From Bacillota bacterium (lineage in GTDB: Bacteria; Bacillota; Clostridia; Christensenellales; DTU072), in assembly GCA_023394875.1 (NCBI GenBank), contig JAEXAB010000001.1:320588-384587 (forward strand): a stretch of DNA of 64,000 bases, in the 5' to 3' direction. Shown piece after piece: positions 7,196 through 55,605 of this stretch (its first letter is position 1; each line of letters opens with the position of its first letter). A model generated the notes under the pieces. That model was not told the origin of the DNA and searched no databases. It was given only the letters and a program-made list of their open reading frames with translations. A program made the position numbers and the translations under genes.

Positions 7196-7207
7196 AAGGA
7201 GGCAGCA

Positions 7208-9691: not shown

Positions 9692-9700
9692 GATAACGCT

Positions 9701-12251: not shown

Positions 12252-12261
12252 TAGTGTAAGC

Positions 12262-21815: not shown

Positions 21816-24800
21816 TTATTTACTAGCTATATAGATATAGGTGTAAAGTACGAAGGTCTTAGGCGTCATACCTTGCTGCGCATAATTTCCGTTATAGATT
21901 GTTTCGGCATCGGTAGTGGTACCCATAGTTATTGAGAAGGTTGTTTCCACAAGGTATCTTGTACCAATCTGCGCCATGGTGTTGATTGCCGTAAAGTCGC
22001 CTATATTTATTCTGGTTTGACCGTTCATACGATAAACAGTGCTGTTATACCACGGTAGGTACGTTGCCGCAGATGAATTAAACGTTGAATAATCGGTACC
22101 TATCGTCCAGTTAACTCCCGGTATAGTCGTGTCCGTCTTAACAGAGAATACATAATTCATTTGGAACAAAGGTAGGTTCCTCAAGTTGAACATAGCACCT
22201 TGAGATATATAAAGGGTAGGTATGTTCTGTGTACCCTGAGTTCCTGCTTGCCAATAGTAATTGCTGGTTGCCGTCTGCTTAGCGTCGTCGTCATAGCGGT
22301 AGCCTTTTTCCAGCAATACGCCGGAGTTCTTATAGGATACTTCGTTTTCATCCACTGTCTCGTCGGAGTTGGGTACATACAGATAGTGTTTGTTGCTTAC
22401 AGCATCGGAGACGTAGAAGGATCTTGCCCCTGTTTCGTCTTTCTTGAATATGCTTGCCACTAAGCCTCTGCTCAACGGGTCAATATAGTGGACTATTGAA
22501 GAATCATAACCCGAAATAATTATTTCTCCGCCTATTGCAGTTGTGGAAGCAGGATACGCCCTTCTGCCTACCGCTCTCCAAGAGAGTATGCCTATCTGAT
22601 ATTCATTGACTAACTGGTTGTCGTTATCGTCCAGACCGAAGTCAAGGTTCTGTAATGATGCGGGACTAAAGGCGTTGGTATATACTTCTCTTTGTGAAAG
22701 CTCTCCGCTTGCTACGGTATCGAACCTTTCCTCATCGACTGGTTTTACCAGTTTGTAGTACTCAACAGGTATATAGTCGTTGTTGTCGGTAGAGAACAAG
22801 TTGTAAGACGTAGACATACCGAAGTATTGGATTAAGTTTTCGGGTAGCGCATACGTTGTGCCTTTAGGTATACTTAGTAAGCCGGGTACGTTACTGTTAA
22901 TCCAGCTTCTTGTGGAAGTATTGGACAGCTTCCAACGGAAGGTTTGTCCGCCCTTTCCACCCAAAGTAATGGTAGCGTACTGAGCTGCCTTATCGCCGAA
23001 CGCCACCGCGCCGAAGTACCACTTGTTATAGTTATTCCTATAGGTACCGCCGCCGTTTATGTTGGTTATCAAGGTTTCTTTGGCTACGCCGTTTACTTTA
23101 TAATGGACTCTATAGCCATAGCTTGCGTCATAGACAGGATGTCCGTTTTCTTCGTTGTATACCACTTCGATATAGAAGTCAGGGTTGTTAACCTCGGTTA
23201 GACTGCTTATCTTAGGTAACAATATGATATCATCAGGACCATAAGGCGTGGTGCTGATAAAGGCGTCTACAGCTCCTTCGGTGTCGAAGAACAGCCACGG
23301 GTCAACGGCAAACGTCTTGGTGTAGAGTTGGTCGTCAAGGCTCATTGTAAAGGAAGTTTTCCTCTCGGTGTCGTTAAAGTAAACGGTTATTTTGCCTTGA
23401 CTTGCGCCCGACCAAAGAGCTCCTGAATTATACTTGTTGCATGTTGCTAAGAAGGCGTTAATAGCCGCGCTGTTATTAGGCACCTTCATCATAGCGTTGA
23501 ACTGCTCGTAGCCTAGTTTGGTCGTGGTATAAATCATCACGTCATCGGGCATCTTCAAGCCGCCTAACTGAATGAAGTAATAAGGGTCAAGTATTCTCCA
23601 GTTGTTGATGTCGTCGTCATATTCTATCGCGCCGTCAACTATTGCGTTTTTATACCTATCTGCCGACTCGTCGGAAACAAGGTCGTTTAGAATGCTTCTG
23701 AAGTAGGTGTCATAGCTTATTTCATATCCGTCTTCGTTAATCGGATTTGCAAACACAATATATTCCTCGGTAAGATTGAACATAATCTGAGCGTTTTGTT
23801 GTCCTTTTGCGCCCAAACCGTAGCCGGGGATAACCATATTGAATCTAGCTTTGCCGCCCTTGTAGTTTAGTCCTTGAGTGGTGTCTAGAGTAAAGCTCAT
23901 TTGTACTGCGTTGTTATACGCTTTGCCTCTGCTGTCTACTCCGTTGGTTTCTTCGGCGGATAAGATATACTTACCGCTCGATTCGGCTATCTGGTTGAGG
24001 GTGTAGTAAATAGGATCGTTGAAGTCTTCAAAGTACACGCCGAATACTAAGGAAGTTGAACTGCTGAAGTGTTGGGCAATTAGCTTACTTTCTATATTGG
24101 ATTGTCCGATATAGTCGTATACGCTTATTGTGGTACCAAGTCCGATTGTGCCGTCTTTAAGAACGTTGGGAGTAAAGCCGTAGAAGCCTCTTGATACGTC
24201 AACTTTTCTACTTAATATCTTGACGGGGTATAGCAGCATTTGATATGAATTGCCGCTTCCGATACTTACTTCTACTTCGCCGGAACCACCTGAGTATCTC
24301 CAGAACATATCGGCATCGTAGAACTTGACGCCAAGTTTGTATTCTCCCTGTTCGGTTGCTAAGTTGTAGTTGATATAGTACTTGCCGCCTTCGGCATAGC
24401 CGGGCAGAGAACCGAACAACACGTCAAACTCCGTTCTCTCAAACTTTAGGACGGTATCATACTGACCGCCTGCCAAATAACCTTGCTGCGTTAAGGCATT
24501 AAAGCCCGAATCGGAATTGACGTACTTGACAAACGGGTCAAACTCAAAGCCCTTTACTGTGGTAGTTGTGTTGCCCGAACCAACGGTAATGTTCTTGAAG
24601 TTCGGAGCGTTAGTAGCGTTAAAGCCAAAGTCGCTTATGGTACGGTTGACATAAACAATCGGTATACTGAATTTCTGAACGCCCGCGTACAAGGTTTCGT
24701 CTGAGTTACCAAAGGTAGCCACTAGCTTGCCTGCGCCGCCGCCGTAATTAATCTTGCCGCCCGACCTTCTCAGCTCTGCGCTCAAAATTGCGCCGCTTCC

Positions 24801-27800
24801 GCTTACCGAAGTAACTTCGAAGTACTTGTTGTTGATGTTGCTTCCGTCATAGTTAATTTCGCTGAATCTGTAGCTTACAAGTTCTTCTCTCTCCCCGTTA
24901 TTCAAGCGGTAATAGTCTTCCTTGTCCGCGCCGTAGATTGTTACGTTGGTTACCTTGGAGCTGTAAACCACGCTGGTTTCAAACTGGATTGCGCTGCTTC
25001 CCGAACTCTTAATAAGTCCGTATTGGTCGATATAATAAATATCCTTATTCAGACCGCTTCCGGCAACGTACTTCATATTAAGGATTCTTGCCTTAATATT
25101 GGTATCAAATTTGTCTTCCTCGGTGCCGCCCTTCTTTAACGGAGCGATATTGATATCCAACGCCTCTTTAGCGCAACTTAATACAGCTCCAACACTTGCG
25201 TTCATATTCTCGGACACTCTGAGTTTAATAGTGACGCTTCTCCCTGTGTAAAGGTCAGTCGTTTTGGTTGCGTAATTTGTTGAAGTGTCGTAAATAGTGT
25301 AATTCGCTGCCGTAAGGTTATAGGTACGGGTATAGTTGTCGGCGCCGTTTGTTACTATTCTTACGTTTCTGAAGTAACTAAAGTGCGCGCTTGAGAAATC
25401 TTCGCTGTAGACGTTGTCGGGAGCGTTGAACCTCGGGTCTCCGTTTAACGCGTTACGCATCGTGTAAGGATTGAGCAACAGTTCGTTGGTAGCCTTGAGT
25501 TCGTTTACGCTGTCGTTGTACAGTAAGTTGTCAAGGTCGATAAAGTCAACGCCGTTGTAGCTTACCTGATACTTCTGTATACTACGGTCGCGTACCACTA
25601 CGCTTATCGGGATAACTTGGAGTATTCTTCTGCCTATTACGGCTCCCTCTTCGTCATAGTCGGTATCATAAACTTTGGCGTAAACTATTTCGTTGGTATA
25701 GTCTTTGTCAAATACTCCGCCCGCTAAGGTCATGTTGCTAGCAAACGCCGCGTAATCCCATTCTACGGGTATTTCTCTTTCTCTGACGTTGCCTTGATAG
25801 TCTATAGAAATTACCGCATTTAGTGTACTGGGTAGTCCAATAAAGCCTTCAAAAGGTTCCACTATCAAGTTGATTAGTTGCTTGGTGTTAACGTTGTAAT
25901 TAATTCTTTGATAATTAACTCCGCTTTGTCCTTCCACAACCTTAAGCTCTACTACTTGCGCCCTATTAATATAAACGGTTACTTCAAGTTGCTGTCTTAA
26001 TATGCCTTCTCCGATAGAAGCGATAACGGAATAGGTGCCGCCGCCTGTGGTATAGACAATGTTTTCTATGCCTTCCCACTCTATAGTGTTTACTTGAGTA
26101 AGTTCGCTGCCGCTGCCGTAAGCTACCCAATAGGTATAATCGTCAAAGTCAACTCTGTTATAAATATCGCCGCTTAATTCCACAACGTCGTTGCCGTCTT
26201 TAATGAACAAGCCCGAAACCTTTCTCGACCACAAAGTTACGTCAACTATCTTTTCCGAACGAATGTCGAACTGACCGTACATGCCGTTAGGTACGCTTAC
26301 GCCCATATAGAAGGATACTTTGTAGGTTGCCTGGTCAAAGTCGTTAGCTACGTAGGAATATAAATCAATGTCGTTTACGTCAACTTTTACGGTAACTTCC
26401 TTAGTGGTGTATTTCACTGTGCCGTTATTATCGATATAGCGTGTGTAAACTAAGCAACTGGTGTTGTTAGCAACCAACCAATCGATATTCTCAACTCCGT
26501 AAGGATCAAGATAGATATCTTCGCTGATACCGCTTATTACGTTAACTATTGTTTCTTCGCCGATATTTAGCTCTACTTCCCTGTACAGATAACCAAACGT
26601 AGCGTCGCCGATTACCGCGGTAGCTCTGGGCATTTGTCCGTTTTCTTTCTTGCCGGTATAATCGTATGTCTCTATTCCTCTCCAGCTTACGCTCAAGGTT
26701 TCGCTTTCCGAAACGCCGTTTCTTACGCCGGTTACTGTGGCTCTGGTAGGCAGTTTTGTGTTAATATCATCGTAAGCGGTTGCTATCTGATTATTAAAGT
26801 TTACTACTTCCCATTGTCCCGTTCCGCTGTTGAATCTCTCATAAACGATATTGGAAATAGTGCTGAACTTCCTTATAGCGGTATTGCGTAATACTACGGA
26901 TATAATTTGTCTGTTGTTGTGCTTGGTCCCGAAAGTGATACTGCTGTTTACTGTAGCCTTGCTGTAGAACTCGCTGTTATTGGATAAATCAATTAAACCT
27001 TTTATTGTGCCCGTCGTTCCGTCGGCGTATCTAACGGTAAATATTACGTTTTGTTCTTCGCCTAACTTAATAACGGCAGGGTCAATAGCCAGACTAATGC
27101 TTCCGCCAATGTTTTCTATCGGGATATTTACTCCGTCTGTTGTCGCGCTCTCAATAGAGGTAATAACGGTATTCTTTTGGATGTTGGTAACAATGTAAGA
27201 ACCATTATTGTATTTAATAACCTTAGTTAGATCGATTATTATCCATCTGCTCCATCTAGCTCCCACCTGAGTTATGGAATCATAATTCTTGCTGCGTACA
27301 AGCACCTTTATAGAATGTGCTCCGTTAGCAGTATTGTTGTGATAGCTGATACCGTCGTCGGTATAATCGTTGTTGCCGTTGGTGTCGTAAACGTATTCCC
27401 AACGTACTTTTCTAAACTCGGTGCCCTCGTATAATTCGTCAAGGGTATCCAGTTCCCAAATGGCGTTGTCGAAGTTATCTCTGCTTCCAACCTCGTCGCT
27501 TGCTATGCCAAAACGTGTTCCCGCAGTGGTGCCGTCTTCTATTATCAGACCGAAGTTATATTCTCTGGTGTTGACTTTGTCGTCGTTATAGTACAATCTT
27601 AAGAAGTTGTCTATGGTAGCTTCGCTGTAGGTATTGATGGATATCGTAGCATTGTAATTAAGATATATTTCTCTTATGTTAACTTGTTTTACTTGGATTA
27701 CCACACCTCTTATTAGCTGGTCGCCGAACAGACTGTCTTTTAATAATACTTCGGCATAAAGTATGGTTCCGTTGTAACTCAAATTTTCGTTGATATTTTC

Positions 27801-30800
27801 TAAATCAACCTTCCAGATTATTTGAGTCTTCTTCAGGTCAAGTACCGTCTTGTTGGTAACTTCTCCGGTTATAGGATCGACTATGGTTTCTATCTTCTCT
27901 ACTCCGTCAAAACCAACGTTTATAAATCTACCTAAGTCTTCCATAGTAATGGTGCTTAAATCGCTACCGGATACGCTCTTTGATTCCACGCTCTTAGCTA
28001 CTCTTCTTTCCACTGACCTACTGATACTCAAGCTCTTGCGTGAATACTCGTTATACCATTTATCCCAAGTGCGGGCTTGTAAGCTGGTGTTGGATTCTCC
28101 GAAATTAGCTGTTCTTACTTCCTCGAATACTTCTTTCAACGCGTCTACTGAAATCTTATTGTTCTCAACTTTGACGTTGCTGTTATCTGCAATCAGTTTT
28201 TCATAAGCTAAAGACTTAGCCGCGGTGATGCTAATCGTGGTGTAGGTAAGTTTTGCTTCTAGCAGTACGGTATCAAGATACAATACCGTATTGTTGTTGT
28301 AGGTATCCTTAGCGGTATCGCTGTACTTATCGTACCATACGTCCCAAGCTCTGGCTTTGTTGTTGTCTTTATTTTTGAGAATTGCCGCAAGCTCTAATTT
28401 TTCGAACTTAGTTAGATTGTTATAAACAGCGTCATAAGCCTTCTCTTTTGCGTTATTAAGAGAATATCTAATAGACAGATTGTTGAGCATAATTTCTGTC
28501 AACATCAAGTCCATATCCAGCTTGCTATAGCCGTTTTGTCCGATGGATGCATAAATCGTGGTATCCAAACTGCGGTTGTAACTCATATAAGGAATACTGT
28601 AGCTAAAGCCGGTACCATTTATGGCAATAACTCCGTTCGCTTCAAACTTGCCGGTCATCTGGTTGTAAGTTGCGTATGCCTTATTAGCTTGAGTATATTG
28701 TCCAAGAACGGCTTTTTCATAGTATCCGCTGGTGTATACAACGTAGATTTCTTCACTTAGACCCAATCTGTTGATATAAGTATCGTTAATGGTATCGATA
28801 GGACTTAAATCGCTACCGGTGTCATAAGGAGTAATGACCTTGTTGTTTTCGATATAGACCTTGGTAGCTCCGTTATAGAAGTAGCTTGCGCCGCTCTGAA
28901 TGTCGCTGGAAAGTATCTTTATTAGAATCTTGACGGTCTGAACGTAGCCCGTACCATCGGTTATATCGTAGCTTATAGCATAGTCTTCTGCCTTGGTGCT
29001 AAGGGTCTTATAGTCGTTTAAGGTCTTGCCGTTAAGTTTTAGGAACTTTAAGCTACCCTCGATAATCTCCCAATCCTCGACAATGTCGCCGCATTGTACC
29101 GTTACTCTGTCAAAGGAAGTAATACCCTTTACTGTTGCAAGCGGGTTGTTGTTATACAGAGGATTAATTGTCAACATTCCGTGATAGCCTTGCGGCACGT
29201 TAGAATCATAAACTATTCCGCCAACGGTGTTTTCCACTTCGCTTTCCACTTTTACAAGCTCGTAATTCTTAATGGTAAGCGGTATCTTGACGTCGGTGAA
29301 CTCGGTATTGGACGATAGTTCTTTACCCTCGCTGTCATAGCCGAAGGAACGGAAGCTTAAATCAATATAGGGCTGTTCGTCGGCAAACGGACTATTGTAT
29401 TTCATAGAGGTAAAGCGTCTTATGGAATTAACGGTCTGATAATCCAAACTCCACTTCAAATCATTGAATATATAAGTCTTTTGTCTGACGTTGCCTTGAT
29501 TGTCGGTATTTGTATAGTTGTAATTGAATACCAAAGGTAGGGACGCTAAGAACTCTTCGGCGTCAAAGGCTCTGGGATTGATTACGATATTGCTTATTTT
29601 GTCAATAATCTGCGCTTTGGCTTGATTTACGTCAATTTCAAACGGCTCGATTACTACTCTTACAGTAGAGCATACCGCATTGCCGATATATCCTTGCAGA
29701 TAAACGGTTTGTCCGTTCGTGCCTTTCGCGCTGGAACCTAAAGCGTCGATATTCCAGGTTATCTTCATACCTTGAGTACCCTTGGAAGAACCGTCGGTAA
29801 AGGTAGCGAAATATCTGTTCGGCAATACGTCTATTATGGAAACAGTAGAATCTACGTTCCTTCTTACTCCGATAAAGCCATCGGAATATGCCCAGGTTCC
29901 GCCCTCTACGGTAAAGTCGGTAAGGTCAAACGGGTCATGGAATATTATCCTTGTCGGTAAGGTGCGGATTTCTTTGGTCCAAACAGCCATAACGGGCTCT
30001 ATAGAAATATGCCAGAACTCTCCGTTAAAGGTGGTGTCGGATACCTGACGGATATCCATACCGTTAAGGTCGATATCTACTTCCTGATAAATATCCTCTT
30101 TGGGATTCTTATTGTTGTCATAGATAAATATTCTGTCGTAAACAACCTTATCGCCGGTAATAGGATGCAAATAATAGGTATCGCTTATCGCATAGGATTG
30201 GTAATTGGACTTAGCGATAAACTCTTCCATAAACTTCTTAGCGTTAATATCTTCCACACCCGCTGAAACAATTTGTCTGGTTTGGATATCACAGCTCTTT
30301 ATTTCGTAAGTAGCGGTAGGATCTGTCTTGTAGGTATATGATCTCTTAGTGACGACATCTGATTCCACTCTTTCTTCGTAGTACATTCTTTCCATTACTT
30401 CGCCGTTTGAGTTGGTGGTCATCTCGTATTCCTGTCCACTGGTCTTGGACGTTTCGAACTCAGGAAGATTCAACTCTTCACGGTTGGAAGAAACGTTGTG
30501 GTAATAAAGCTGAACGCCTCTGTTCCTGTATTCATTGGGGTCTTCGTCGGACATCAATCCCTTCATGTTTATGGTATATGCGTTTTCTTTTACAACGGAA
30601 TAGAAGGATCCTATTCTGCCGCTCTTCTTCCAATAAGCATAATCCCAATCGCCTTGCTGCATTGCGCTGTAAGACGGCATCTCGTTTTCTTCGCGCAGAG
30701 CAATTTTTTCGCTGTTCTCGCTAAAGCTTGAGCCGTTGATAAACAGGCTTATTCTGTCGATATATCCGCTTTCGGAATCGCTGTTTAAGGTAATCTTCGC

Positions 30801-33800
30801 ATACACGCTCAAGTCATATTTCTTGGCTTCGCGGTATAAAGTACGGCTATAAGTGGTGCCGTCTTCTAACGTTACCGTAGCTGTAGAGGACAAAGTTTGG
30901 TCGGTTAGCAAGTTCTGATAAGGTTTCAGCGGGCTAGACGGTAAATCCATAGTGGAGAAGATGCTATAGCTTACTTGGAAAGGCAATACGTGCGCAATCA
31001 GTAAGGAGGCTTCTTCCAGTACGTTTCCTACCTGCTGTCCTACAGTCTTTAGTATTCCACCCAACAAAGGTATGATTGAGAAGGTTGTCGGGCTGTAAAC
31101 CAATAAAGCGATTAGGTCGTTTACACCTATTCTTTCGCCCAACAGGTTAACCGCTAAATCCTTTAAGTTGGACAGAGCAAATTCCTGCAACAGATAATGT
31201 ACAAGTCCTGCTCCCTCTTTAGCTAGAGCGCTTTGAGCCGCCTGCATAAAGGCTCCCTTTTCTTGATAGATATAGTTATATATCTTTATATCGTCTTCTT
31301 CGTTATATCTGCCGCGGTAGCGGTTGGTAAACTTGCTGAGCAGTTCTCCTTCGCCCTTTTCTTCAATTTCGTTTTCGGGATATTGAGTAAGGTCAAAGTC
31401 ACTTTCTTTGGTGTTTGCGCCAAGACTTATATCGGCAGCAGTCACCGTCTGTCCCATAGTAACGCCGGTAATACCCAGCATTCCGAAGAACAGATTCTGA
31501 ACGTTCAACAACAGATTGGTAATCATATTGGAGTCTATCCAGGCTTCTATATAAGTGTAAGTGTTGTATCTGTCGGCAACACGGCTACCTTCATAGATTA
31601 AGTTGCTGGTATCGTCAAGATAGGAATAGTCGTATTGCTGTTCTCCGTTGTCACCGTCGTTATGCGGTTCGCTGTCGATTATGTCTGCGCCTAGACGAAT
31701 GCGGAGTTTTTGTATCATAGCAGCGCTCTCACTTACCGTTTCCGACCAGTGGGTGGGACGCTTAGTAAGATTAATCTCAACATTATAGCTTGCCGCTCTG
31801 TTATCGGAGGCATTGACCGTTTCTGCTACACCCATTGTGGAAGTGGTATAGCTTGCCGATGACGGGTTGCCGACAACGGTGCCGCCCTGGGTAATGTTAA
31901 AGTTTTGATAAACCTTAGAACGGAACTTGAAGATATAATTGCCACCCACTAAGAATTCGGGCGCGGTAAAGCTGAACTTGCCGGCTTCGTCGACGTGAAT
32001 ACTGTAATTTTCGGGCTCTAAATCGTAGAAATCTTTAACGCCGATTGTGTGTCCGTTCAAGGAAACCCAGAATTCGAAGTCATCAACAGAAGGCACGACG
32101 TACTTATTAAGTTCGGTGTCATAATAGCGGATATAACCCATGAAAGTTACGCTTGTTACGTCGGTCTTAGTAAATATAATATCTACCTGCAGCGTGCTTC
32201 CTGCGCTTGCCGAACTAATATAGGTATCAAGTAAGCCTATATCGATGCTTGTTCTCATACCGGCAAAGGTATACACAAAGCCTTCAAACTTATAGCCGCT
32301 TAGCTTACCTGACAAAGAGTGATAGGTCTTTGATATATTGGTGTAATAATCTCTTAGGTCGGTATATTCGTCTACGTTAATAGAGTAATTACCCTTTGTA
32401 GCGGTAGTTAAGCTACTTACCGTACGGTTCAGGCCGCCGTCGACAACTATACTTGCTCCGCCGAAAGCCAATACGTTAGTAAGTTCTGCCATGCTTAAAG
32501 CAGGATTAACCATAAAGTAGGTCTTACCGGTTAAAGTTACCGTCTTCTTTCTATCCGCGTTTGCTTTTGCCAAAACTTGCGAACAGTTAATAGCGGCGCT
32601 TGTCTCTTTGGGCACTATCAAAACGTCGTTTTCGGAATAGGAAGTATAACCTTCTTTATAGATGGTTACCGTGCTTCTGTCGGTAAGAGCGTAGAATAAC
32701 TCTCCGACCTTTCTGTATCTTACGTTGTTGTAAACAAATCCTGCTTCTGCCGTAGGATTGATAGACGGATTATTTGTCAAATATTTCTTTACGCGTTCTA
32801 TATCCTGCTTGCCGGTTATGTGGTCGGTAATGGGCAGTTCTAAGAAATAATAGTAACCGTCTTTGTCGGTGGTTGCCTTATTGACAATACCGCTTCCCGA
32901 AGTAATCTCAACAACGGCGCCCTCAACAGGTAGTCCGTCGGTGTCCTTGATTATTCCGTAGAATCTTCCCGTTTCTCCCGCCGTATCGGTATCGGGGAAC
33001 ATAGTGTCGGGGAAGATAACAATGGTACCAATAGCAATACCTTTACTGATAAAGCCGTCTATATCGCCCTGCAAGAAGCTCTTGACGTCTAACGTTATAC
33101 CCAAAATGGTAACGGTAATTGACATACCCAAAGTTATTACCAAGGTATGGTTTTCTACGTGGACGGAAATATTGCCTTGCTTGTAAGAAGGCGTCTTTAT
33201 TGCCGCGTCTATGACGTTATCCATAGACTTATTGACTTCCAGTTTTCCACGGGCATATCTGTTTCTGAAGAATTTGGCTTCGTTGGTATCGTCTTCAAAA
33301 ATAGCCGTAGCGCCGCTGCTTATATTGGAAATCAGTTTGTAACCGGTTTGAATGATTTGCCACCAGCCAACGGGGTTGCCCATAGCGGCGGTTGCAATAT
33401 TGGATACAATCTGCGCAATCTTTATTATTTTTACTATCTGAATAATACCTTGGGCTACAGACTCTGCTCCGTCAAAGCCGTCGTCTTCGTCGGCATAGTT
33501 ATTAGGTCCGGTTTTGTGAACTGCGGGATATTTTGTAAATACGTCTTTTCTTGTCCAATAATCGGTACGTTTTTCTACGTAGAGTGTAAGGTCGTCAAGG
33601 AATATGCCGTCTAATACACTGTTAACCAGGTTGGCCATATTCATCGATATACCCTTGGAGCTTAGGATAAGACCGTTTACTCCGCCGTAGTTATTAAGAC
33701 TTTCGGGCAAGGCAATTATGTCGGTTAAGTCTTTATCTCTGCCGCCTGCTGCCTCTCCAACGCCGTCGTTTATTTTTATCTTTAATCCTCTTTCGGGGAT

Positions 33801-42800: not shown

Positions 42801-45800
42801 CCATTCCATTTCTTTTAGGTAATCGGAATAGAACTGTTCTAATTTTATATTCTTTTGGTTAATATCGCGCACGCTATCGGCAGAATAATCAAAGCCGTAA
42901 GTAGAAGCTAGCGCATCGTTATAGTAGCATTCTATAGCCACATAATCATATAAGAACAATTTTGCTTGTATTTCGGTAAATTCGGTAAGTCTAGCTCTGA
43001 TTTTACTCAAAATTGCCGGCGCGTCCGTTCCCGTATCGGTTAGCCATGTATTTACTCTTGAGAGTTTTTGCGCGTCCGATAGGTTATAGTTGTCATAAAG
43101 CAAAGTATTTTCTAGCAATACCGCCCATACGTTGTCGTAAATAATGTAGGTAGCCGAAGTATTGTTCTGATACCAATAAACAAACTCATTGTTTAGAAGT
43201 TCGCTCATAAGTTTGCTGTCGGCGTCGTCTATTTCCTTACTTGGTAAATCCAATTGTATTAATATAGTAATACTTGGGTCAATGGACAGGCTTAAAGCAG
43301 GGGTGGTAACCGAATTAATAACTTCTTCCACTACCACGATTGTTTCTGCCATATCTACGCCCATAAAGAATTTAACTAAAGAGAATATAGCCCCTTGAGT
43401 CAATTGAATTGCAATACCTTTAATAACGTCGCCTATAATAGCTAAGGTACCTACGCCCCTTGTGGCTCCTTCGATGTTCTGCGGACGGGCGCCGTTGTAG
43501 AATTGTTCTATACTGTTAATTCTTTCTCTGGTCTCAGCGGCTTGCTCGGAGTCTCCTCCCAAAAGTGTAGAAAGTAATCCCATTACGTTGGTAATCTTAA
43601 CTTTACCTACGTAGAAGTTTTCGTTATTTGACAAGCCCGAAGCGTCGATATAAAGGTCGCCGCGGATATAGGATATACCGGCAATCTGCGTAATTTCTCC
43701 GGTTGTCTTATTCATAACGTTTAGATAAATCTTCGCCTGCAAGTCTTCCAGTATAGATTTAATATTAACGGTTAGGTTAATATCTACGTATATGATGGAA
43801 TCAACGTCGTTAATAAGTTCCAATATAGGAGCTATTTGTCTTGTAAAGCCTTGGGCTGCCAAATCGATATTGGCAATAGATAAGACGTAATAAAGCAGTT
43901 CTTCAAGATTATAGATACCTTTCTCATCGGTAATGTTTATCATTATTTTAGTCTTGAAGTAAACGGTATCCAGACGGTTTAATTCTCTGTATTCTTCTAC
44001 GCCGCTAACCGTTGTGCCCGACGACTCAAAACCTACATATAAGCCGTTTAGTTTTATTGTTATACCTAATATAGGTCTCAAATCAGCGGAGCCTGTATTT
44101 AGCGGATCATCGCTCATTGCTACCTGCAAACCGAAAGCAAAGCTCTTGGAGTTTTCGTTTACCTGCACGCCTTTTAGGTATATTTGCAATGCGGCGTCGT
44201 TAAACAAATCAAAACCGCCGAAACCGAACATTTTTAATAGCGAAGAAATTGCGGCTTTCTTTACAATCAGATAGAAGCCGTCACTGGTTATGTTGGCAGA
44301 CAGACCTAATTTGATATTGTTATTAGCGGCAAAGCGTAAATCTTTGGCTATGCTTTCCCAACTTGCTGCCGACGCGCTATTAGCCGCGCCAAACAAGGAA
44401 TCGGCAATGTTGGCGATATAAATCTTGTCGCTGTTGAGGTTGCTTAGGTTGATATACAGATTCTTATTATAGTAAGTTATTACCGCCCATTCTTTGTTCT
44501 GGTCAAAATACATGCCCTCTGCCGTGCGGTATATCCTAAGTCCTACTCTTAGGGTAGAACCTGACTTTAAGTGGTCAAGGAAGTTGGAATCTTCACCGTT
44601 ACCAAAGTCTAGGTCAGCTAAAATATCCAAAGCAATGGTTATTTTGTGAGTATTGTTTAAGGTAAGCAATACTTCGGCAAGACTGGTAATAAGTCCGGTC
44701 AGACTCTTTTCCAGTAGGGTATAAACAGGGTCTTTCGATAAATCTTTGCCCTCTGTAGCTCCCAAATCGAACTCCAGATAAACAGTAGTTCTAATAGAAA
44801 TCTTGGGTAAAGAGTTTTCTACTACCACGTAGCCGACAGGGTCGCCGTTTTCATCTTTTTCCAGGCTGTTTTCGTCAAAAGTGATATATTTTTCTTGGTC
44901 TAAGTCAAGCTCTATGGTATGGATACTTAGGTTAAGGCTTATGCCTCTGCCTGTGGAAATACCCTTGTTGTTTACGCTCTCAAAGCGTATTCCTACCCTT
45001 ATTAAGTCTCTGTCGGCGTCGGTAAATATGCCGGGAACTTCTCCACCATAGGTAGCTACGCTGAATATATCCAAAGTAATACTAGGTTCGCCCACCTGCG
45101 TAATCATACTCTTGATATTGTCCATGCCGCCTAAATTAAGGAAGCCTAATACTGCGTAAATGGCGTTGGCGGCTATTTGAATAGTTAGACCGCTCTTTAG
45201 TAAGTCAAGGTTAACTTGAGCGTTTTCGCTGTCGGCTGCGTTGGCAATCTTAGCAGCCATTGCCGCGGCTACTATAACTTTGGAAACAGAGCCTTCTTCT
45301 TCTACGTCAATGCCCAAAGGATATGCGCCGTTTGAAGCAAAGACGGTACCAAACAAGCCTCTAATATACTCAACGGCGTTCTTTATATATATTCTTTGGA
45401 TATTAAACCTTTCGGCGTTGAGATAAATATAGTTGGTTTCTGCTCCTGTAACAGGGTCCACTTCGGAACCAAGGACAAATTGCAGAACAATGTCGTTAAC
45501 ACCGTTTCTTTGTTTGATATTGCCGTTGCTATCCAAAGCATAAAGGGTTATGGATAGGTCGGTTGTGCTTAGGTTGCCGTCGAATAAGTCAAATAAATTG
45601 AACCTTGCTTCCATAATTATGCGGTAATAATTGCTTATATCGCTCAGTATGGCAAGTATGGGCGCAAGATCAATTACTTGTCCTTGCAATTCAAGATTAA
45701 AGTTCATACCGCTAAGCAGTGTATTAACTAAAGTTGTGAAATCGTATTCGGTGTTTTCTTCCAAATCCCAACCGAAATCAATTTCCAGTGCGGCGTAAAC

Positions 45801-48800
45801 GTATCCGAAATTCTTGTCGAATATCGCAAACTCACCGTTTGAGTCTTTTTGAACTTCTCTTAGATAATCGGCAATGGTTATTGCCTCTCTCTTCTGAATG
45901 ATATTATGATTTTCGTCCTCATAATCTACCCAAACTTTCTTGGTAAGTTGATTATCTTCAAATTTGATGCCGGCTTCGCTGAATTTCGCGCTTATATATA
46001 GGTTAGCAACTTCGGCGTCTACTGCGATTATGGAATTATCATACAGTAAGCCAAGTCTTATTTGACCTTGCTCATGCACCGCTTCTACTATTAATTGCGG
46101 CAAGTTCGAATATGCGTTGTCATAGTATTCGTTAAGTTCATCTAAGTTAGCATCGTCAACGTCCACTTTGTACCAAATTTGAGCGCCGTCTTCGGTAAGC
46201 ACGTCACTTAGTTGCACCATAATTTTCTTAGATGCGTCTCTTCTGGGGTTGCCTTCGCTGTCTGTTAATATGGTATAGCTTTGCTGCTTGCGTATAATAA
46301 ACTTATTCTCGCCGTTTAGTACAGCGGTCATTTCTTCCTTATAATAGGTCCAAGCGGCAAAATAATACTCGTTGTAAGTCAACTCTTTCTTAGCGTTGGC
46401 TACATAGGTTATTAAGCTGTTGTTTAGATACGCTTCGGCTTTTTCGTTGTTAAAACCGTCCGATGCCACCAGCATATCCCAAGCGTATGCCTTCCAAATA
46501 GTGGTTACCGTTGAGTTATAGCTTCTATAAACGGTGCCTTCAAAGATAAATATATCTTCGCTCATCATAAACTGACCGTTAGAATCTTTAGCTATATTAT
46601 TTATAGCGCTCATCTTGTCGGTTATATTACGGTATTCACCCTCGATATTAGCTTTGATTTCCAACCAGGCTTTGCTCTTTGCATTAAGGTCCAAGCTGCC
46701 GTTTGCTATAAAATGTCTTTGATAAATAGCCTCATATTCGGCTTTGTCGTCTTCCGACCACATATAGTTCTTTGTAAAATACTCAAATGCAGTCTTCTGT
46801 ATATACAATAGACGGTTAGCCGCAGGTATATTTGGCATAGAAGCTACTGCGCTGGTAGCGGCCAGATAAACGTCGTTAAGGGCTGTTATCTTTGTATATA
46901 CGTCTTCCAAATATAATTCTAAAGCCTTGCCTTTGGCATAATAGAGAGAAAATTCAAGCGCCATTGCCGAAGTTTCGGCTCCGATAGCGTCATCGTCTTC
47001 CTGTCTCTCCTTGAGGTCTTTTACTTCGCTTGCAACTAATTCTCCGTAGATGTCCCAAGCTTGAATTTTCTTTTCTTTGGTTGTTCCGGGAGCGGTTTGC
47101 GTTTCCAAAATTATACCGGCACGGGTATATTCCTCATCGGAGAGGTTTTCCAAAAGGGCGTCCCACGCGCGCGATTTATCATTATAATTTTCTTCCAATA
47201 TCTCGCCCATCAGAGTTAGAATAACGTCTTTCTTGTATTGCTCCTCTTTAAGTTCTCCTACCACTATATCTTCCACAAACTGCTGGAAAGCGCGGTTGGT
47301 CAAACTCTTGACGTCATTGAACGCCTCATTAAGCAATTTCACTAGAACGTTGGCTGTAGCGGTAACGGTAAAGCCGTAAGTATTGCCGATAACACCGCTG
47401 ATAAAGTCTTCTAACGGAGTTTCGTTGATCGTTCCGGGTGCGGCAGAACTTAGACCGGGATTTTTATTTAATTCTAAATTCTTATTGACAGCGTACTTTA
47501 AGTACAACGTATATTGCATGTAATCATAATCGGTCGCCATAGAGGTGTTGACTACGGGAGAAGCCGATTCGGGAACTTCCTCTTCGGTGCCGCCGCCGAA
47601 CAGCTTGCCTAAGTTATCCATAACTTCTTTTGCGGTTTTCTGGAAATCAACTATCTTTATTCTTCCCACGTTGAACGCCGACAAATCAATGTAAAGGGTA
47701 AGGAACTCATCTATACCGTCGGTCTCTTTAACAAGATAAATGCCGATAATTAATGCTTCGGAATAGTAGCCGTTTTCAAACGTGGTGTTATACAGCTCTA
47801 AATAAGCCTCAATGCCCGACGCGCTAAGTAGTCCTAAAATGTCTAGTGACAGTTCGGGATTTTCTTCTTTGGCTAAATTGTACGCATTGAGTGTGGCTAC
47901 CAACTGCATAATGTTGGCTTTTGCTTCCAACCTGAAAGTAACGTTGGCATAAACCGATTGGATTACGTTAAGTATAACGTCTAAAGCAAAGCTGTCGTCT
48001 TTTAATAAAGCGCGTAGCAAATCGCCAAAATTGATACTTGTCATATCCATTTCGGTTTCCGCAGAATCTTCGCCTTCGGCGCCAAGATTTAATTGACCTT
48101 CAAAATATAGTTTGAAATCAGACGTCCAGTTTTTGTCAATAACGGTGTAATAATCAACGTACTTGCCGTTTACTAATATCTTCTCTCTGATTGACAAGGA
48201 CAGCGGGTCGGTAAGAGAAAGCTTAGGATATTCTATGCTCAAGCCTAAGTTAAACAAACCGTCAAGCTCCAGGTCTAGTCCAACTAAGTTACTGCCCAGC
48301 GCCTCAATGGTAAGATTGGGGGTATATCTGTTGAAATAACCCTCTATGTCGATACCTAGCGTTGCCATCAAGGAATAAAGAGCGGCGCCGGTAACTTGCA
48401 ATAAAATAACCGAAGTGTTTGCTCCCTCTCTCTGTGTGCTGATACTAAGTATTATTTCCTTAGCAATAGCGCTTGCCGCGGCATTGTTGAGTCTTGCGTT
48501 AGTATCGGGAGCAGCGGGGGAGGGCTGTTGATTATTTCCGCCGCCTGCAATTAAGTCTCCCAAATTAATGCCGAACGCTTCGCTCAAAGCAATAATAATT
48601 GCGCTTACGTTATGAAGCTTTATAGGCTCTACACCTAAGAACTTCAAAGAAATGTATACGTCGGCAACACCGTCGGCGCCTACTACAACGTACAAGGACA
48701 ATACGTTGCCAAGATAATAATCTCCGGCAAGACCGTATATCTCATCCCAGAATTTTGCGTTTCTCTCGGCTTCGGAAAGGTCGGAATAGAAAGTAAAGAA

Positions 48801-51800
48801 CTCTCCTTGCTCAAGTTCTACCATTTTCTGATAGCAGTAGAAACCGTCGTTAATTATAAGTTCATCTATATATTGAGTGGTGCCGGGAGTGGGATTTTCT
48901 TGAAGCAGTCTTGTCTTCATTGCCTTCCAAGCCAGGTCTTTATTGTATTTGAACTCTGCAAGTATATTATTCATATACTCTCTTCTGGGAGCTAAGCCGT
49001 TATATAGTGTTTCTTGATTGTACTTAGAAGTCAGATTGAGGTACAATTCTACATTCTTGAGTTCTTTTAAGGTATTCAAATTGACGTTCGCGCTGATATT
49101 AAAATAAGTTGCCTGAGAGAATACGTCATCTAAAGCAACGTCCAATTGCAAGCCAATTTCGGGGTCGCGGTTATTGAGCCAATAGTTGGCAAACATCTTG
49201 ACTGCGTAGTCAAAGTTCCAGTTACTGGCTACGTTTGACAATTCGAATGTTGCTTTACCTCCCCAGCTTAAACCTACGGTGGAAAATTCTTCCACTTCCG
49301 CCCAGTCAACGTTGTCGATATCCTCAGCGTATTCAATAACGGTATCCCTAAACGATACGTCGATATTATGTAAAGTAAGGCCCATTTCCGTTCTGTGGTC
49401 TTCAAAATTGGTCACTCTACCCATTTCGTCAAGATAAACAACGGCTGATACACCCAAATCTCCGGTAAGATTGAGATTAAGCCTTACTCCGAAGTCAATA
49501 GCGCTCAATTCATCTTCTAAATCAAGTCCGGCTAAGGCAAAAACAGTTATGAAAGAAGACTTAGTTAAAGCCACGCCGATATTGCTTTCAAGGAACAGCA
49601 AGTCAAGATAGGTGCGCATGTCGATGCCTTCTTCGGCGGCATTCGCTGCGGCAGCCCCTAAAGCGCGGTTATAAGAGGTGTTCAACGTAGCGGCAGAAGC
49701 CGGCGCGTTTCCCGGTTCTTCCACGTCGATGCCCACAAACTGACGTAACGCTTTGGTAAGCGATACAAGGAATGTGGAGTCGAAAATTTCGGTTATTCCT
49801 GTTACAACGCTACTTACGTTACGCAATACAACGTTGCCGATATTGAAAATATTGGTAGAGACATAAACTTCTCCGGTTAATTTGGAAGCGTTATCTTCTA
49901 CGCCGCTACCGTCGTAAATAACCGTTAAAACCTTCTTTACTCCATCAGGACCGAGTTTGTTCTGGGTCATTGTGATTTTGAACTTACTCTTGTAGAAATT
50001 GCTGAAAACAAGCCAAGCTTCAACTTTGATATTGAGGCTGTCGTTCATTTCTCCAAAGAACTGCAAAAGAATGCTTGTTCCCATATCGTTAAGGTCGATA
50101 AGAACGGCGCCTTTAACAAGTAAATCCCAGGCAACAGCCGAAAAGATAACATCCCCGGGTTGTGCATTGGCATAGTCATCACGTTCATCTTTCTTGTCTT
50201 TTATTTCTTTTTCTGCGGCTACGAAACGCTCATCCATTTCCCTTCTTTGAGCATCGGTTAAATTATCTTTCTTATAATATTCCGACCACGCTAAGGCTTT
50301 AAGAGCATTTTCGGTCATTGACGTACCTTTGTTTGCATCAACTATCTGTTGATAGTGGGCGTTCAAATCGGCTTGCCTGAATTCGGAATTGCTAAAGAGT
50401 GAGCTGATAGCGTCGGTAAGGTCATAATCGTTACGATTGGTTGTGTTACCCTCTCCCAATCTGTTTCTAATAAACAAAGACGCTTCCACCGCTACATAAA
50501 TTGCATCGGGCACGCCGTCCGTTGCTCCTTCGGGCGGATAGGTGTTGTTACTGGACACTCTGTAATTAGGTCTCTTAGCAGGGTCTACGCTGACGCTTAT
50601 ATTTCCTACGCTAAGGTCTATTTTGTATACGTTATCCAAGCCTAGTGACAAAGTAATGTCAAGACCGTTATTCATATCCAGTTCCAGATCCAGACTGTCT
50701 ATGGTAACAAAGTCGGAAACTTGGGCAAAGTTGAGCATGGTCAGCACAACTCTTATAGCGACTTCCGATAATTTTACCGATACCTTGCTGTAGCCGTAAA
50801 GGACTTCTAAAGAAACTTCGGTATTATTGACAATAGACGGGCTTGCGTGATTTATTGCATAACCGCTATAATTACCTTCTCTTGGATTAAAGGCGTTTGC
50901 CAATTGCTCCAAAGTAGCGGGAGCATTGGAAACTGCAGACGGATTGTTTATTATATTGCCGTTGGCGTCATAATAAGTAAGCGCGGCGGCATTAATAGGA
51001 TTTATCACCGCGAAACTTGCCATTCTTTGTCTTACGCGATAGTAAGTAACGGCATATAATTCCTGTGTAGTAACGTTTCTGGACGTATATTTGGCGTTGA
51101 CTTCTTTCTCCAGATTTTCGTTAAAAACTTGTTCGTAGCGTATCTGATAATCTTCACTCTCACGAATAGCCGCAGAAGTGGCGTTCTTATATTTGCCTGC
51201 GTATAAGTTATCTTTATCGGCTCTTAGTTCGTCAATTACGCTTAACGCCGTACGGTTTTGCAAAGTCGCATAGGCGGTAGATTTAATGTAAACCGCTCTC
51301 AAATAATTTTTGATTTCCTGAACCGTTAATTCCAGCTCACTTTCCATAAAGGCTTTTTGCTCGCCCAAAATACCTGTTTTATTATAGGTTTTATCCCAAA
51401 TAGTTTCGTATTTGGCAACTAAATCTTTATAATAACCGTAAGCAGCCGACTGGAGTTTGTTAAAGAACAATCTTTCGTCAAATTCATAATCATCGTCATC
51501 GGAAACGCCGCTTTCCAATCTGTCTTTTTGCTCAGCCAGATCATAAACGCTGATTTTCAGGACGTTTCCGTTACCTTGCTGCATGGGATTGATAAAAGCC
51601 ACAAGCACGTTATTGTTATAAATATTAATAACACCGGCATCGGTTATGGAGAATACTCTGGAAGTATTCTTTAACGTCATTTCGTTTTCGTAGTCAGTAA
51701 AATTGAAGTTGTTGTTGACGTTGTTGTAGTTGTACAAGTAAATAAATCCATCATTGCCTACCAGATATTTATAGTTGGTAATGGGATAAGATCTGGAATA

Positions 51801-54800
51801 ATCCTTGTAGAAATTATCAAAGAAGTAACTAAGCGTCTGTTGCTTCATTACCGCATCCATTAAATTACGCTTGGAAACATAATAATCGGCAGGGTCAATA
51901 TAGTTGCTTGCCGTCTCATTGTACATCAAATCCCAAAGTAAGCTAACAGCTCCGGTATAAGTACCGGCAAGGTCGGAAATTGTGACAGTGCTTATACCGA
52001 AGTAAGATAAATCGATGTAAGCTTTGTTATCTTGAATATAAATACCGGCTATTACTTTATAGGTATTGCCGTCTTTTGCAGAATACCCTAAGCTGTCTAG
52101 TATGTTGGTATCAAATAAAGCTATGGTAAGATCACTTGCCAAAAGGTCGTTAATATTGATATTGCCCACAACCGCAATACCGATGTTAAGTCCTCTGTCA
52201 TAGTAATAATTGTTGTTCATTCTAAGAGCGATAGAATTTAGTAACTGATATATGAACCCGCCTTTAGCCGCGTCTAATTTCAATAAATCTACCAGCATGC
52301 CCGGGAGATTTTCGTTTAATTTGTCGGGCTCATAAATAAGTTCGTTAGCGCTTAAATTTAAGTGTACTTCCAGATTGGCGGAAATAATAAGCGTCTGCAT
52401 CCAATCGGTTATGGATACATAACTTGTAGAGCTGTGACCGCCCACAAAAGTGATTTCCGATCCTTTCTTTATAGAAAGGGTATCAATGAGGTTTAAGTTT
52501 AGATAAAACGCCTCTTTTTCGGTGCCGCCACTGTCCACAATGCCGATATGAGCGGTTATATATCCGCTGTCTTTTAGATGGGCTACTGCATCGGCAAGCT
52601 CAAAGTCCGCCCAGTTTAAGGGAGCGCCGGTCTGGTCGTAAGCATAGGGTAAGCCCTCTTTAACCACGTACAGCTGCTTGAATTTTTCTCCGTTGGAGTT
52701 GATTATTTCGTTTTCATAGATGAGATTGCCGTCCTTGTCGTATTGCAAAGCGGTGCCTAGATGTAGATATATACTTCCGTTGACTTTGGGGAGCTCTCCC
52801 GATAAATCCAACTTCATAAATTGTAGCAAGACCGAAAGGACTTGGGCGTTCATAATGACGCCTAATCTGCCGTCGGCAATACTCACTCTGTCTAAAGCGC
52901 CGGCAATAAGGTCCAATATGCTATTACCGTCGGTTGTAACTTCAACCTCATCGGAATTTGCCACGGGACTGAACGCCATAGATGCATTGACTACCCCCAA
53001 TAAGCCGAAAATTCCACTAAGATCCAAGCTCATGTTTTCCAGCATGCTCTTAATGCCTACATTCTTAATGCTTATCTTCGGAATGGCGCCGTCAACTATT
53101 TTGGTAATGGGCAGAACTGACCCTAATTGCGTTACCAGGTCATAGCCTTCTTTAACTTGCGTGTTGAGATAGAGGGTATCTTCGTTACCTGAGAAATACA
53201 AGCTCATGAAAGGATAAGGCTCTCTGCTACCCGGTGTTTTTATCAGATACAAATCAATTAATAAGCCAACTTCGGAGAACTTTAAGAGGTTTATACCTGC
53301 CTGAATTTCATACTCTATACTTAATCTGCTGGTATTTTCTATACCCAAAGACAGGAAGACGTTATTAACAAATGCCCCCACAATGGCGGACAAATCCAAT
53401 TCGGTGCCTCCCGAACTACCCAGTTCCACATTACCGGTAATCTTCGCCCCGTATTCCATAGAGCCTGACATTGACTTAAAGTCGGCGCGCAACGCTTCGG
53501 CATTTTCCATTACGTTGCCGTTTTTGTCTATACCTATCGCAGTAAAGTCAAAATTAGGCTTTTTGATTAACGACAAGCCTGTATTATAGGTGCCGTCTTC
53601 GTTGGTGGAGCCTAAGCCGATACTTAGTCTTAGTGACTCTGTAACGCCAAGGTTAATTCTTATGGAATCAAGAGGGTCTTTTAGGTCTATGGACAATCCG
53701 AAATTATTAATACCAATATCAACATTGGGTATGAACAGCCCCAATAAAGAGTTGATACCGTAATTGTCAAAACCAATGGAGAATATGCTTTCCCCTTTAG
53801 GCGGGAAATGCAAATATTTTAGATTGCCGTTGTTGTCCTTTGTAAGTAACAACGTCAATAATCCGTTCAAATCAAAACCGCCCTCTTCATCTTCCTCGGC
53901 ATTGGCGGCGTTATTGGGACGCGTCGCCGTCGTGGTGTTGGGATGATACGGGTCGATATATTTCATATATTCGGACAGTAATCCGGGAATTTCGTTACTG
54001 CCCGCCAGAACTTGAGTTATATTCAAATTCGGCAATCGCAACTGCGGAATAAGGCTCTTGCCTCCGCTGGTTAGGTTATGGGTGTCGATATAAAGGGTAC
54101 TAAATAAAACCGTACTGCCCGTTTGCATAGACAAATCGGGGGCAAGATAAAGGGCAATTACCTCTCGGTTGTTATAGTTGAAGCTAACTTGGGCTTTGTT
54201 GTTGGCGTTATTGAACAAGTCAAGAGAAGCAGCGACTTTTACGTCAAATTCATAATTAGTATCCCCCGCAACCTCAATAGGCATATTACCTAATGCCCCT
54301 AAGTCTCCCAGCATATTGCCAAGCAGACTGTTAATGGTCAATTCTTCGGTGGTATCGTTTTCCACCTGCATTTTGGCGTTTAATTCTATGTTGGTAAAGC
54401 TACCTTGGCTATAAACGGTGCCTTTACCTGCCGAACCGAAGTTATATCCCGCCATTTTTATGTCAACGGAGTTGGTGTTGCTTGTCTGCAGCTTGAAGGG
54501 GCTTACAGTCAACTCAACGTCATATTCGTTTGTGGCGCTGTCGATATCAAGACCAAAACCGTTAAAGATGTAGTCCTGTTTGGAAGTGCCGTCGGCTTGG
54601 GCTACTTTGCCCATCTGCGTTACCGCATAAAGCCTTGCCGTCATGCTAGGCCATTTCTTGTTGATTATGTCTTCCAGACCAAATCCAAGGATAGGTCTTA
54701 ATATATCGTCCATATTGGAAGGAAGTCCAAAACTTTCCCAACTGATTACTAGATTTAGGAAAGTACTGATGCTAATCTTCCCTTTCATAATCATGCCCAT

Positions 54801-55514: not shown

Positions 55515-55575
55515 AAGCGTCGTCTCCATTTTCCGCTAAAAGGGCACACTCCTCCCTTTTTCTTTGCGTACCTAC

Positions 55576-55605
55576 ATTATACGTCCTAGCGCTCGTATGT
55601 GTCAA
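55576..55605 (-). promoter_or_regulatory. near-consensus sigma-70 promoter dedicated to the giant gene
   Basis: On the minus strand it reads TTGACA (55605..55600), an 18-nt spacer, then TATAAT (55581..55576). An AT-rich (TA)n/UP-like tract lies upstream at 55615..55637. The predicted leader of about 45-55 nt contains GGGAGGAG and the GGAGA Shine-Dalgarno. Confidence 0.65.

Follow-up and report, generated by a model that had tools for sequence, protein, structure and literature searches.

A 33.7-kb gene of an uncultured Clostridia genome and its product, a candidate lipid-tethered giant surface fibre

What kind of protein is encoded by a bacterial gene of 33.7 kb, and does such a gene act alone or as part of a larger system? 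The question is raised by a 64,000-nt stretch of a Bacillota bacterium genome (GenBank assembly GCA_023394875.1, contig JAEXAB010000001.1, positions 320,588 to 384,587 of the forward strand; GTDB lineage Clostridia, Christensenellales, DTU072). The whole stretch is hereafter called the window; its minus strand carries one open reading frame (ORF), the giant ORF, of 11,237 codons. The product is best explained as an elongated surface adhesin or tether fibre, which would be exported through the Sec/signal peptidase II (SPII) route and held by a lipid anchor; a probability of roughly 0.5 was assigned to this reading. The evidence comprises the integrity of the gene, a conserved lipobox, an array of strongly diverged modules, and a family of collinear relatives.

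The giant ORF is a genuine gene. At the overall G+C (guanine plus cytosine) content of its span (42.1%), a stop codon is expected about every 16 codons, and the probability that a frame of 11,237 codons stays open by chance is ~1e-313. The remaining five frames contain stop-free runs of up to 215 codons, and their longest ORFs with a start codon encode 155 and 154 amino acids (aa). These data uphold the initial annotation in describing one real 33.7-kb gene, with the other frames broken into pieces of 155 aa or fewer; its statement that stops are expected every 15-25 codons in AT-rich DNA was confirmed for the stop spacing, and the AT-richness is only mild. The G+C content along the gene is uniform (0.40-0.45). 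The NG86 ratio of nonsynonymous to synonymous substitution rates (dN/dS) was 0.059 against an 85%-identical orthologue (L001), and the ratio of the proportions of such differences (pN/pS) was 0.20-0.34 in each 500-codon block against a 66%-identical one (L008). The gene is under strong purifying selection. An artefact, in which the frame would be decaying, non-coding, or chimeric through misassembly, could be suspected from the probable metagenomic origin of the window and from a partial relative with an apparently foreign 60-aa N-terminus from high-GC DNA. Since collinear homologues of many independent assemblies span the whole length and substitution is constrained, chimerism and non-coding status are excluded for practical purposes. 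With the dN/dS of 0.06, the chance value of ~1e-313, and the uniform G+C content also against it, this explanation is already effectively refuted, and its probability is negligible.

The first ATG of the ORF gives a product beginning with METTLMKSN. Because the L008 orthologue (68% identical in this comparison) has no Met before 'MKSKLL' (L008 ~9060-9080; window 55515-55529), the true start is probably Met6 (ATG at 55514), and the precursor would then comprise 11,232 aa; the orthologue thus favours the MKSN start chosen in the initial annotation. The N-terminus, MKSNLLK-FIILALCIVMLISVAA-C, has the sequence pattern of a lipoprotein: its n-region is positively charged, its h-region is hydrophobic, and ISVAA/C (the slash marks the putative cleavage site) fits the lipobox [LVI][ASTVI][GAS]C expected near residues 15-35. 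Residues A28, C29, and S30 are invariant across six aligned homologues, 13 genome loci retain the Cys behind small residues at positions -1 and -2, and the lipoboxes of six distant full-length relatives end in LSC, VGC, AAC, VAC, FAC, or IGC. None of the relatives examined has lost the lipobox Cys, even at 21-30% identity, in agreement with the SPII-type signal recognised at the outset.

No convincing transmembrane helix was found after the signal peptide in a hydropathy scan of the whole protein. The sole strongly hydrophobic 19-mer besides the signal peptide is a beta-branched stretch near residue 7471, and the mean hydropathy of about -0.1 to -0.4 indicates a hydrophilic protein overall. 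Regular-expression searches of the whole protein returned zero matches for LPXTG, RTX GGxGxD, HExxH, collagen (Gxx)5, and YD motifs. Of the residues of the product, 18 are Cys (0.16%) and 57 are His (0.5%), Pro makes up 2%, and L, N, I, S, A, G, D, T, and Y are abundant. The count of about 18 Cys and the lack of a later transmembrane helix or LPXTG motif, all noted by eye in the initial annotation, were reproduced. An abundance of N, S, T, Y, and D with little Cys and His, as seen here, is typical for secreted surface proteins of anaerobes.

When the protein was compared with itself by BLASTP, hardly anything but a weak match between residues 121-207 and 6991-7071 appeared. A motif, [LIV]Y[IL]D[LS]..L....K[IL].[IL].N[IV]..LL..LLG (in short 'LYIDLS..G..KIKI.N', hereafter the LYIDL motif), was found to occur 12 times, at module ends. 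The E-values of the first motif hidden Markov model (HMM) are circular, as the model was trained on copies later found. For an independent test, a model was trained on the copies below residue 1200 only, from six orthologues, and scored against 200 composition-preserving shuffles. It recovered 2567-2638 (11.5 bits), 6982-7054 (11.0), 3914-3987 (7.0), and 3660-3714 (5.3), the best four scores of the shuffles being 10.3, 7.7, 7.0, and 5.7 bits. Profile-profile comparison of the inter-motif units, based on alignments of nine orthologues, gave weak matches (20-70% probability, 80-150 residues) that covered both unit halves in a consistent register. A MAFFT alignment of 24 units brought three shared features into line: an acidic 'NA..EE-GG[FL]D[IL]..LL..LL' linker followed by a helix, strand-helix elements such as 'TE[LI]DLS.L[LV]G', and the terminal LYIDL motif. 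Because the motif recurs, the profiles keep register, and the units share these features, residues 30-4003 and 5941-7075 are interpreted as an ancient repeat array, in which at least 12 modules of ~280-390 aa each have diverged strongly. The initial annotation had noted none of the repeats of known giant-protein classes through most of the length. The protein is not repeat-free, as at least 12 diverged modules, for the most part ~300-380 aa long, would cover ~45% of its length.

The regions recognised along the protein are listed in Table 1, together with the control elements and neighbouring genes. Compared with the six apparently full-length relatives, lineage-specific insertions lie at about 1200-1600, 2700-3200, 4000-5950, and 9000-9200, and all read as helical with AWDKW-type motifs, judged by sequence. 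The largest, at ~4100-5940, is missing from the relatives of 7.1-7.9k residues, and its first ~750 aa were found in eight closer loci of metagenome-assembled genomes (MAGs). Aromatic motifs of this type (AWDKW, AWDVWY, TWDKWY) were observed inside the insertions at residues ~4240, 4950, 9060, and 9150 (window approximately 42800, 40680, 28350, and 28080); their recurrence hints that the insertions may be related to each other. Hydrophilicity is higher in the C-terminal third (7100-11237), which looks beta-rich, and the last 800 aa carry the strongly conserved family motifs INGGGTYRNNYNKW, LTLGGRGGQ, NPYYFI..GGL.MPD, RAYPSP, and NLPLF.

Table 1. Features of the giant gene, its product, and its surroundings (positions in the window; residues of the giant protein).
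Feature	Residues	Window position	Strand	Basis or remark
Giant ORF		21816..55529	-	ORF listing and independent translation: 11,237 codons and one terminal stop
Signal peptide and lipobox, METTLMKSNLLKFIILALCIVMLISVAA/C	1-29	55443..55529	-	Translation and alignments
N-terminal cryptic module array (predicted)	30-4003	43521..55442	-	~10 mixed alpha/beta modules, 280-390 aa; interrupted by insertions of this lineage (about 1200-1810 and 2660-3230)
Module-terminal LYIDL motif, example	744-834	53028..53300	-	Motif HMM
Other LYIDL motif copies	119-187, 434-527, 1140-1196, 1838-1942, 2247-2322			Motif HMM
Other LYIDL motif copies	2565-2658, 3319-3417, 3651-3721, 3926-4003, 6666-6752, 6990-7053			Motif HMM
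Lineage-specific insertion (~1,850 aa)	~4100-5940	37710..43232	-	Helical-looking, low in Gly and Pro, AWDKW-type motifs
Second conserved module block (predicted)	5941-7075	34305..37709	-	Holds motif copies 6666-6752 and 6990-7053
CarboxypepD_reg (prealbumin-like; PF13620)	7525-7567	32829..32957	-	Sole Pfam match above the curated cut-off
Conserved middle region	7790-8940	28710..32162	-	Family motifs R[IM]R[LF]GAD.LD and SY[IV]E.WL
C-terminal beta-rich region	9400-11237	21819..27332	-	Would be the membrane-distal end
Sigma-70-type promoter (candidate), TTGACA-18-TATAAT		55576..55605	-	12/12 consensus matches; ~47 nt upstream of the first ATG
Terminator-like hairpin with T-rich tail		55636..55661	-	Closes the upstream 285-aa gene
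587-aa protein		19997..21760	-	Downstream of the giant gene
285-aa protein		55724..56581	-	Directly upstream of the giant gene
1086-aa predicted lipoprotein		56595..59855	-	Two genes upstream of the giant gene
GntR/FCD regulator, glycyl-radical enzyme, activase		6491..10627	+	Flank
tRNA-Arg(CCT)		12504..12580	-	Sole Rfam match of the window

The protein was compared with the Pfam library in long tiles and in 1000-aa tiles over its whole length, and nothing besides CarboxypepD_reg scored above threshold. This domain reached 40.3 bits in the 1000-aa tiles against a gathering cut-off of 32.3, and 31.3 and 27.9 bits in longer tiles, below the cut-off; the match covers profile positions 4-47 of 82, i.e. 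the first half only. It represents 0.4% of the giant protein and is uninformative on the other 99.6%. CarboxypepD_reg is a beta-sandwich, and such domains are common in surface proteins. Directly before it, at residues 7330-7500 (window 33030-33542), a hydrophobic stretch was observed (IVKIIKIAQIVSNIATAAMGNPVGWW... and TLVITLGMSITVTILGITL); at the equivalent position, the relatives of 7-8k residues have a Gly-rich hydrophobic patch, e.g. IPIPGAGLVGGLITSLISPLLGDLVADLIGDL. The Pfam scans contained no SLH, CW_binding, choline-binding, SH3b, or other wall-binding domains and no signatures of nonribosomal peptide synthetases or polyketide synthases, Rhs/YD, RTX, or collagen-like proteins, with no regular-expression matches to GGxGxD, YD, or (Gxx)5. 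Among Big-family profiles, only Big_1 appeared (E 0.015), overlapping the CarboxypepD_reg match. NCBIfam gave no match for the giant protein, and PHROGs none at E<=0.01 for tiles covering residues 1-4000 and 6001-11237. A phmmer search of all PDB sequences, profile searches of PDB with the module and C-terminal alignments, and a Pfam search with 24 modules and 8 C-termini were likewise negative. The modules can be assigned to none of the known stalk families.

One module (residues 505-850), modelled with AlphaFold2 from an orthologous and paralogous alignment, was predicted as a mixed alpha/beta fold of ~11 strands and short helices, with 167 of 346 residues at a predicted local distance difference test (pLDDT) score >=70. 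Foldseek found no credible match for this model in PDB (best E 0.29, TM-score<=0.15) or in BFVD (best E 5.8e-3, probability 0.44, TM-score 0.16). A phage (tail-fibre-like) origin was considered and rejected, as there was no PHROG match in the tiles compared (residues 1-4000 and 6001-11237), the BFVD matches of the one modelled module were weak, and the neighbouring genes are metabolic. The statements of the initial annotation that the protein fits no described giant-protein family and carries one CarboxypepD_reg-like domain therefore withstood searches of Pfam, NCBIfam, PHROGs, PDB, and, for one module, Foldseek. The Ig-like modules it placed in the last quarter look plausible by eye, with LP..V.V...V.W elements at 8500-10000, and no profile recognised them.

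The anchored N-terminus and great length recall a bridge-like conduit for lipids or other hydrophobic cargo of the AsmA/TamB/VPS13 type, in which a repeating beta-groove extends from a membrane anchor. The protein indeed has an N-terminal membrane anchor, is very long and non-repetitive at the sequence level, and, in a low-confidence model of residues 30-1229, shows many strands of 15-20 residues in meanders, with helices and loops between them. Pfam covers the AsmA, TamB, DUF748, Chorein_N, and VPS13 families, and no such match was obtained even at E<=10. The better model, that of the single module (pLDDT 64), is mixed alpha/beta, with no AsmA/TamB/VPS13-type structure among its best 50 PDB matches (best E 0.29). 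The overall hydrophilicity of the protein also speaks against a conduit, and, to our knowledge, no outer membrane has been described in these organisms. A conduit is accordingly held to be highly improbable.

The initial annotation could not place the protein in any known giant-protein family, and its relatives were sought in several collections. In a word-index search, the N-terminal 1500 aa returned five partial 'hypothetical proteins' from Clostridia MAGs, and the C-terminal 1500 aa returned a single fragment (P0006) matching 9391-11213, with the same end position. Residues 2000-4100 retrieved none among the best 8000 candidates, the true relatives probably being crowded out. Among GTDB species, each scanned with one genome, 13 loci were revealed, all in MAGs, which bear the labels Clostridia, Christensenellales, Christensenella sp., or, in one case, Firmicutes; their names include rumen, sheep-rectum, and ADurb-series bins. 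Eight of the 13 have a frame without a stop as far as the retrieved DNA reaches (at least 4,840 aa), and its product aligns collinearly with residues 1-4850 (41-66% identity). When 1.84 billion representative proteins were searched exhaustively with HMMER, a profile of the trimmed N-terminal alignment yielded 56 proteins at E<=1e-3, each from an uncultured-Clostridia (Christensenellales-type) MAG wherever the source gave the organism. Of these, six with 7,125-7,879 aa are apparently full length, start with a lipobox, and align collinearly with the giant protein from residue ~1 to ~11,190 at 21-30% identity; MFA5448907.1 is one of the relatives of this size. Two metagenome scans at the Joint Genome Institute (JGI) added only eight further loci, and scanning metagenomes with the C-terminal region gave none. 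The relatives bear one to several CarboxypepD_reg copies, from which their NCBI names derive; publicly, they are called 'hypothetical protein' or 'carboxypeptidase-like regulatory domain-containing protein'. The protein is thus no orphan, since 56 relatives, six of them apparently full length, exist in public data. The protein appears to belong to a small, vertically inherited family, so far found only in uncultured Clostridia, mostly in MAGs labelled Christensenellales or Christensenella.

Two relatives deserve mention in their own right. In the most distant genome locus, from a sheep-rectum MAG (L015, 25% identity), the homologous region is split (3797-9763 onward) into a complete ORF of 1,988 aa and a second long ORF matching giant residues 3244-4085 and 5974-6392, which may represent a version encoded by two genes or else a frameshift in the MAG. 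In fragment P0006 (ENA contig L016, 1-850), the first ~60 residues have no match to the giant protein, and the 5' DNA, viewed at ~600-700, looks high in G+C, suggesting that this metagenome assembly is locally chimeric or that the start was miscalled.

Identity to the six apparently full-length relatives is even, at 20-30%, over all shared parts. A single conserved catalytic core was considered and not seen, conservation being even along the shared length. As no catalytic-looking island interrupts this even identity, a structural protein is suggested, and the combination of real repeats with length changes by whole segments (7.1k-11.2k aa) is what a stalk or spacer would show. The strongly conserved motifs of the C-terminal 800 aa can also be accommodated by a protein that delivers a toxin or enzyme at its C-terminus, following polymorphic-toxin, contact-dependent inhibition (CDI), or Rhs-like logic, or by a giant extracellular enzyme, and there are precedents of large exported proteins in which the body is conserved and the tip carries the function. 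However, the C-terminus is conserved across the family and not variable, and no conserved immunity-like small ORF was found downstream, the downstream gene being visible in this window only. Rhs/YD, RTX, and HExxH motifs and toxin or enzyme profiles are lacking, and His and Cys are very few. A toxin or enzyme is therefore considered very unlikely, and the even conservation, segmental length change, surface-type composition, and lack of catalytic signatures fit a structural fibre, whether adhesin, tether, or envelope scaffold, better than either of these.

For the lipid-tethered fibre, we infer export, lipidation, an extended shape, and an adhesion or tethering function from the sequence, as follows. 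The precursor would be exported via Sec, its signal peptide cut by signal peptidase II, and Cys29 lipidated, so that the lipid would hold the N-terminus on the outside of the cytoplasmic membrane. The other ~11,200 residues would form an elongated, multi-module extracellular fibre. Its membrane-proximal 60% would be a chain of diverged alpha/beta modules of ~300-380 aa with an unrecognised fold, lengthened here by helical spacer insertions; the prealbumin-like domain and the beta-rich C-terminal third would follow. The conserved last ~800 residues would lie at the far tip, where binding to other cells, a host, or particles is most plausible.

Several observations weigh against this scheme. No adhesive or ligand-binding domain was identified in Pfam, NCBIfam, or PDB. 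The AlphaFold2 model of residues 30-1229 with six orthologues reached a pLDDT of 43, its long strands in meanders among helices being of low confidence, and the module 505-850 is the sole one modelled, at moderate confidence (mean pLDDT 64, predicted template modelling score 0.47). In addition, a lipid anchor in the cytoplasmic membrane is unusual for a very long fibre crossing a monoderm wall. Some of the same evidence would serve an envelope scaffold or coat, that is, a spacer, sheath, or S-layer-like tether that keeps an outer layer at a set distance from the membrane and is not an adhesin. The evidence for export and lipid anchoring applies equally to it, conservation is even throughout with no special signature at the tip, each examined locus has one gene with apparently vertical inheritance, and no binding domain is recognisable. 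Nevertheless, SLH, CW_binding, or other wall-binding domains were not detected, and lengths of 7.1k versus 11.2k aa among lineages are hard to square with a fixed envelope dimension, which leaves a scaffold rather doubtful. More tentatively, the adhesin or tether fibre can be extended to a broader proposal: the LYIDL unit might be a new fold, and the family a new class of lipid-tethered surface fibres of 7,000-11,000 residues, confined to Christensenellales-type Clostridia, in which inserted helical spacers tune the length in each lineage and a conserved distal C-terminal domain partners with cells (e.g. syntrophic ones), a host, or particles.

The giant protein resembles the fibrillar adhesins and giants of Firmicutes (Ebh, serine-rich repeat proteins, and Giant1-5 of Apilactobacillus kunkeei) in being very large, probably exported, and N/S/T-rich, with a modular body of imperfect repeats that would be elongated, beta-sandwich domains, and a presumed surface role. 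Giant1-5 possess Sec/signal peptidase I signals, RADAR-detectable repeats, an N-terminal beta-solenoid, and C-terminal DUF5776/SH3b-like wall-binding domains (PMC12863079). The present protein, in contrast, has an SPII lipobox at its N-terminus and repeats seen by profiles only, and it lacks DUF5776, a beta-solenoid, LPXTG, and any wall-binding domain. The giant proteins of gut Clostridia described by West-Roberts et al. have 10,000-30,000 aa and contain RCC1, Listeria-Bacteroides repeat, YG repeat, dockerin, and leucine-rich repeat (LRR) domains, and the giants of Omnitrophota have many transmembrane regions and SecA DEAD domains (bioRxiv 10.1101/2023.11.21.568195). The former share with our protein the class Clostridia, the size, and an occurrence in gut- or rumen-type metagenomes, but none of their repeat domains was detected here; the many transmembrane regions and SecA DEAD domains of the latter are absent as well. 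With AsmA/TamB/VPS13 proteins, it shares an N-terminal membrane anchor, length, and cryptic beta-rich units with weak pairwise similarity, a likeness of architecture only, and it differs from them by its hydrophilicity, the helices in its modules, and the lack of a profile match or, for the modelled module, a fold match. The likeness to surface proteins with CarboxypepD_reg (PF13620) lies in the one copy passing the curated cut-off and in the naming of the relatives after this domain. The family thus shares a known general kind, the giant modular surface protein, and is set apart by its lipobox anchor, the unrecognised module, and the near-total lack of known domains.

The gene is among the largest bacterial genes, taking up ~1-2% of a small genome, and ~99% of its product is invisible to the domain libraries tried. 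Relatives of 7-11k residues are under purifying selection in a lineage that includes Christensenellales-type bacteria of the gut, rumen, and digesters. Cell-cell association is thought to be important in such bacteria. If the surface fibre is true, it would be a candidate for the attachment of these uncultured organisms to partners or substrates, and the hidden module would be a new building block among bacterial surface-protein stalks. More generally, 'repeat-free' giant proteins can be ancient repeat arrays beyond detection by BLAST.

Does the gene act alone? A GGGAGGAG Shine-Dalgarno-like sequence lies between the candidate promoter and the first ATG, the promoter call being a consensus match alone and not functional evidence. 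The terminator-like hairpin further upstream suggests that the giant gene starts its own transcription unit. The 1086-aa predicted lipoprotein (signal ...FAISG/C) contains Big_2 and a C-terminal transglutaminase-like core, and the 285-aa protein has no signal peptide or Pfam match. In L001, L008, L007, and L011, all of one lineage, synteny of the pair and the giant gene is preserved; in other lineages, the lipoprotein gene is missing from this place. In a second lineage, the upstream genes encode FTHFS, a FeoB-like protein, and a PP-loop protein; in a third, they encode ROK and PIG-L, with one locus (L015) adding a homologue of the 285-aa protein with weak DUF4380/DUF6786 matches. For the 285-aa protein, a cytoplasmic role in sugar metabolism unrelated to the giant protein is suggested. 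A functional link of the giant gene to these two genes was considered and left unsupported, as the synteny is confined to one lineage and the others have housekeeping or sugar-metabolism genes at this position. The three lineages compared have no upstream partner gene in common, and the gene is therefore best regarded as standing alone, with no multi-gene system around it. The initial annotation had named it as the candidate for an undescribed system; upstream neighbours that differ among lineages do not agree with a role as the centre of a multi-gene one.

Downstream, the 587-aa gene starts 55 nt past the stop codon of the giant gene. Its product has an N-terminal signal or transmembrane segment, MBG_2 repeats, a C-proximal transmembrane helix, and Flg_new (Listeria-Bacteroides repeat). 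Because the GC-rich hairpin between the two genes has no T tail, they may be co-transcribed. The flanks of the window encode ordinary anaerobe metabolism, including an FGGY kinase, flavin adenine dinucleotide (FAD) oxidoreductases, a major facilitator superfamily (MFS) transporter, and regulators. On the plus strand, genes for a GntR/FCD regulator, a pyruvate-formate-lyase-like glycyl-radical enzyme (827 aa), and the radical S-adenosylmethionine (SAM) activase of this enzyme (308 aa) lie in this order. The tRNA-Arg(CCT) gene is located in an ORF-poor stretch at 11466-13279.

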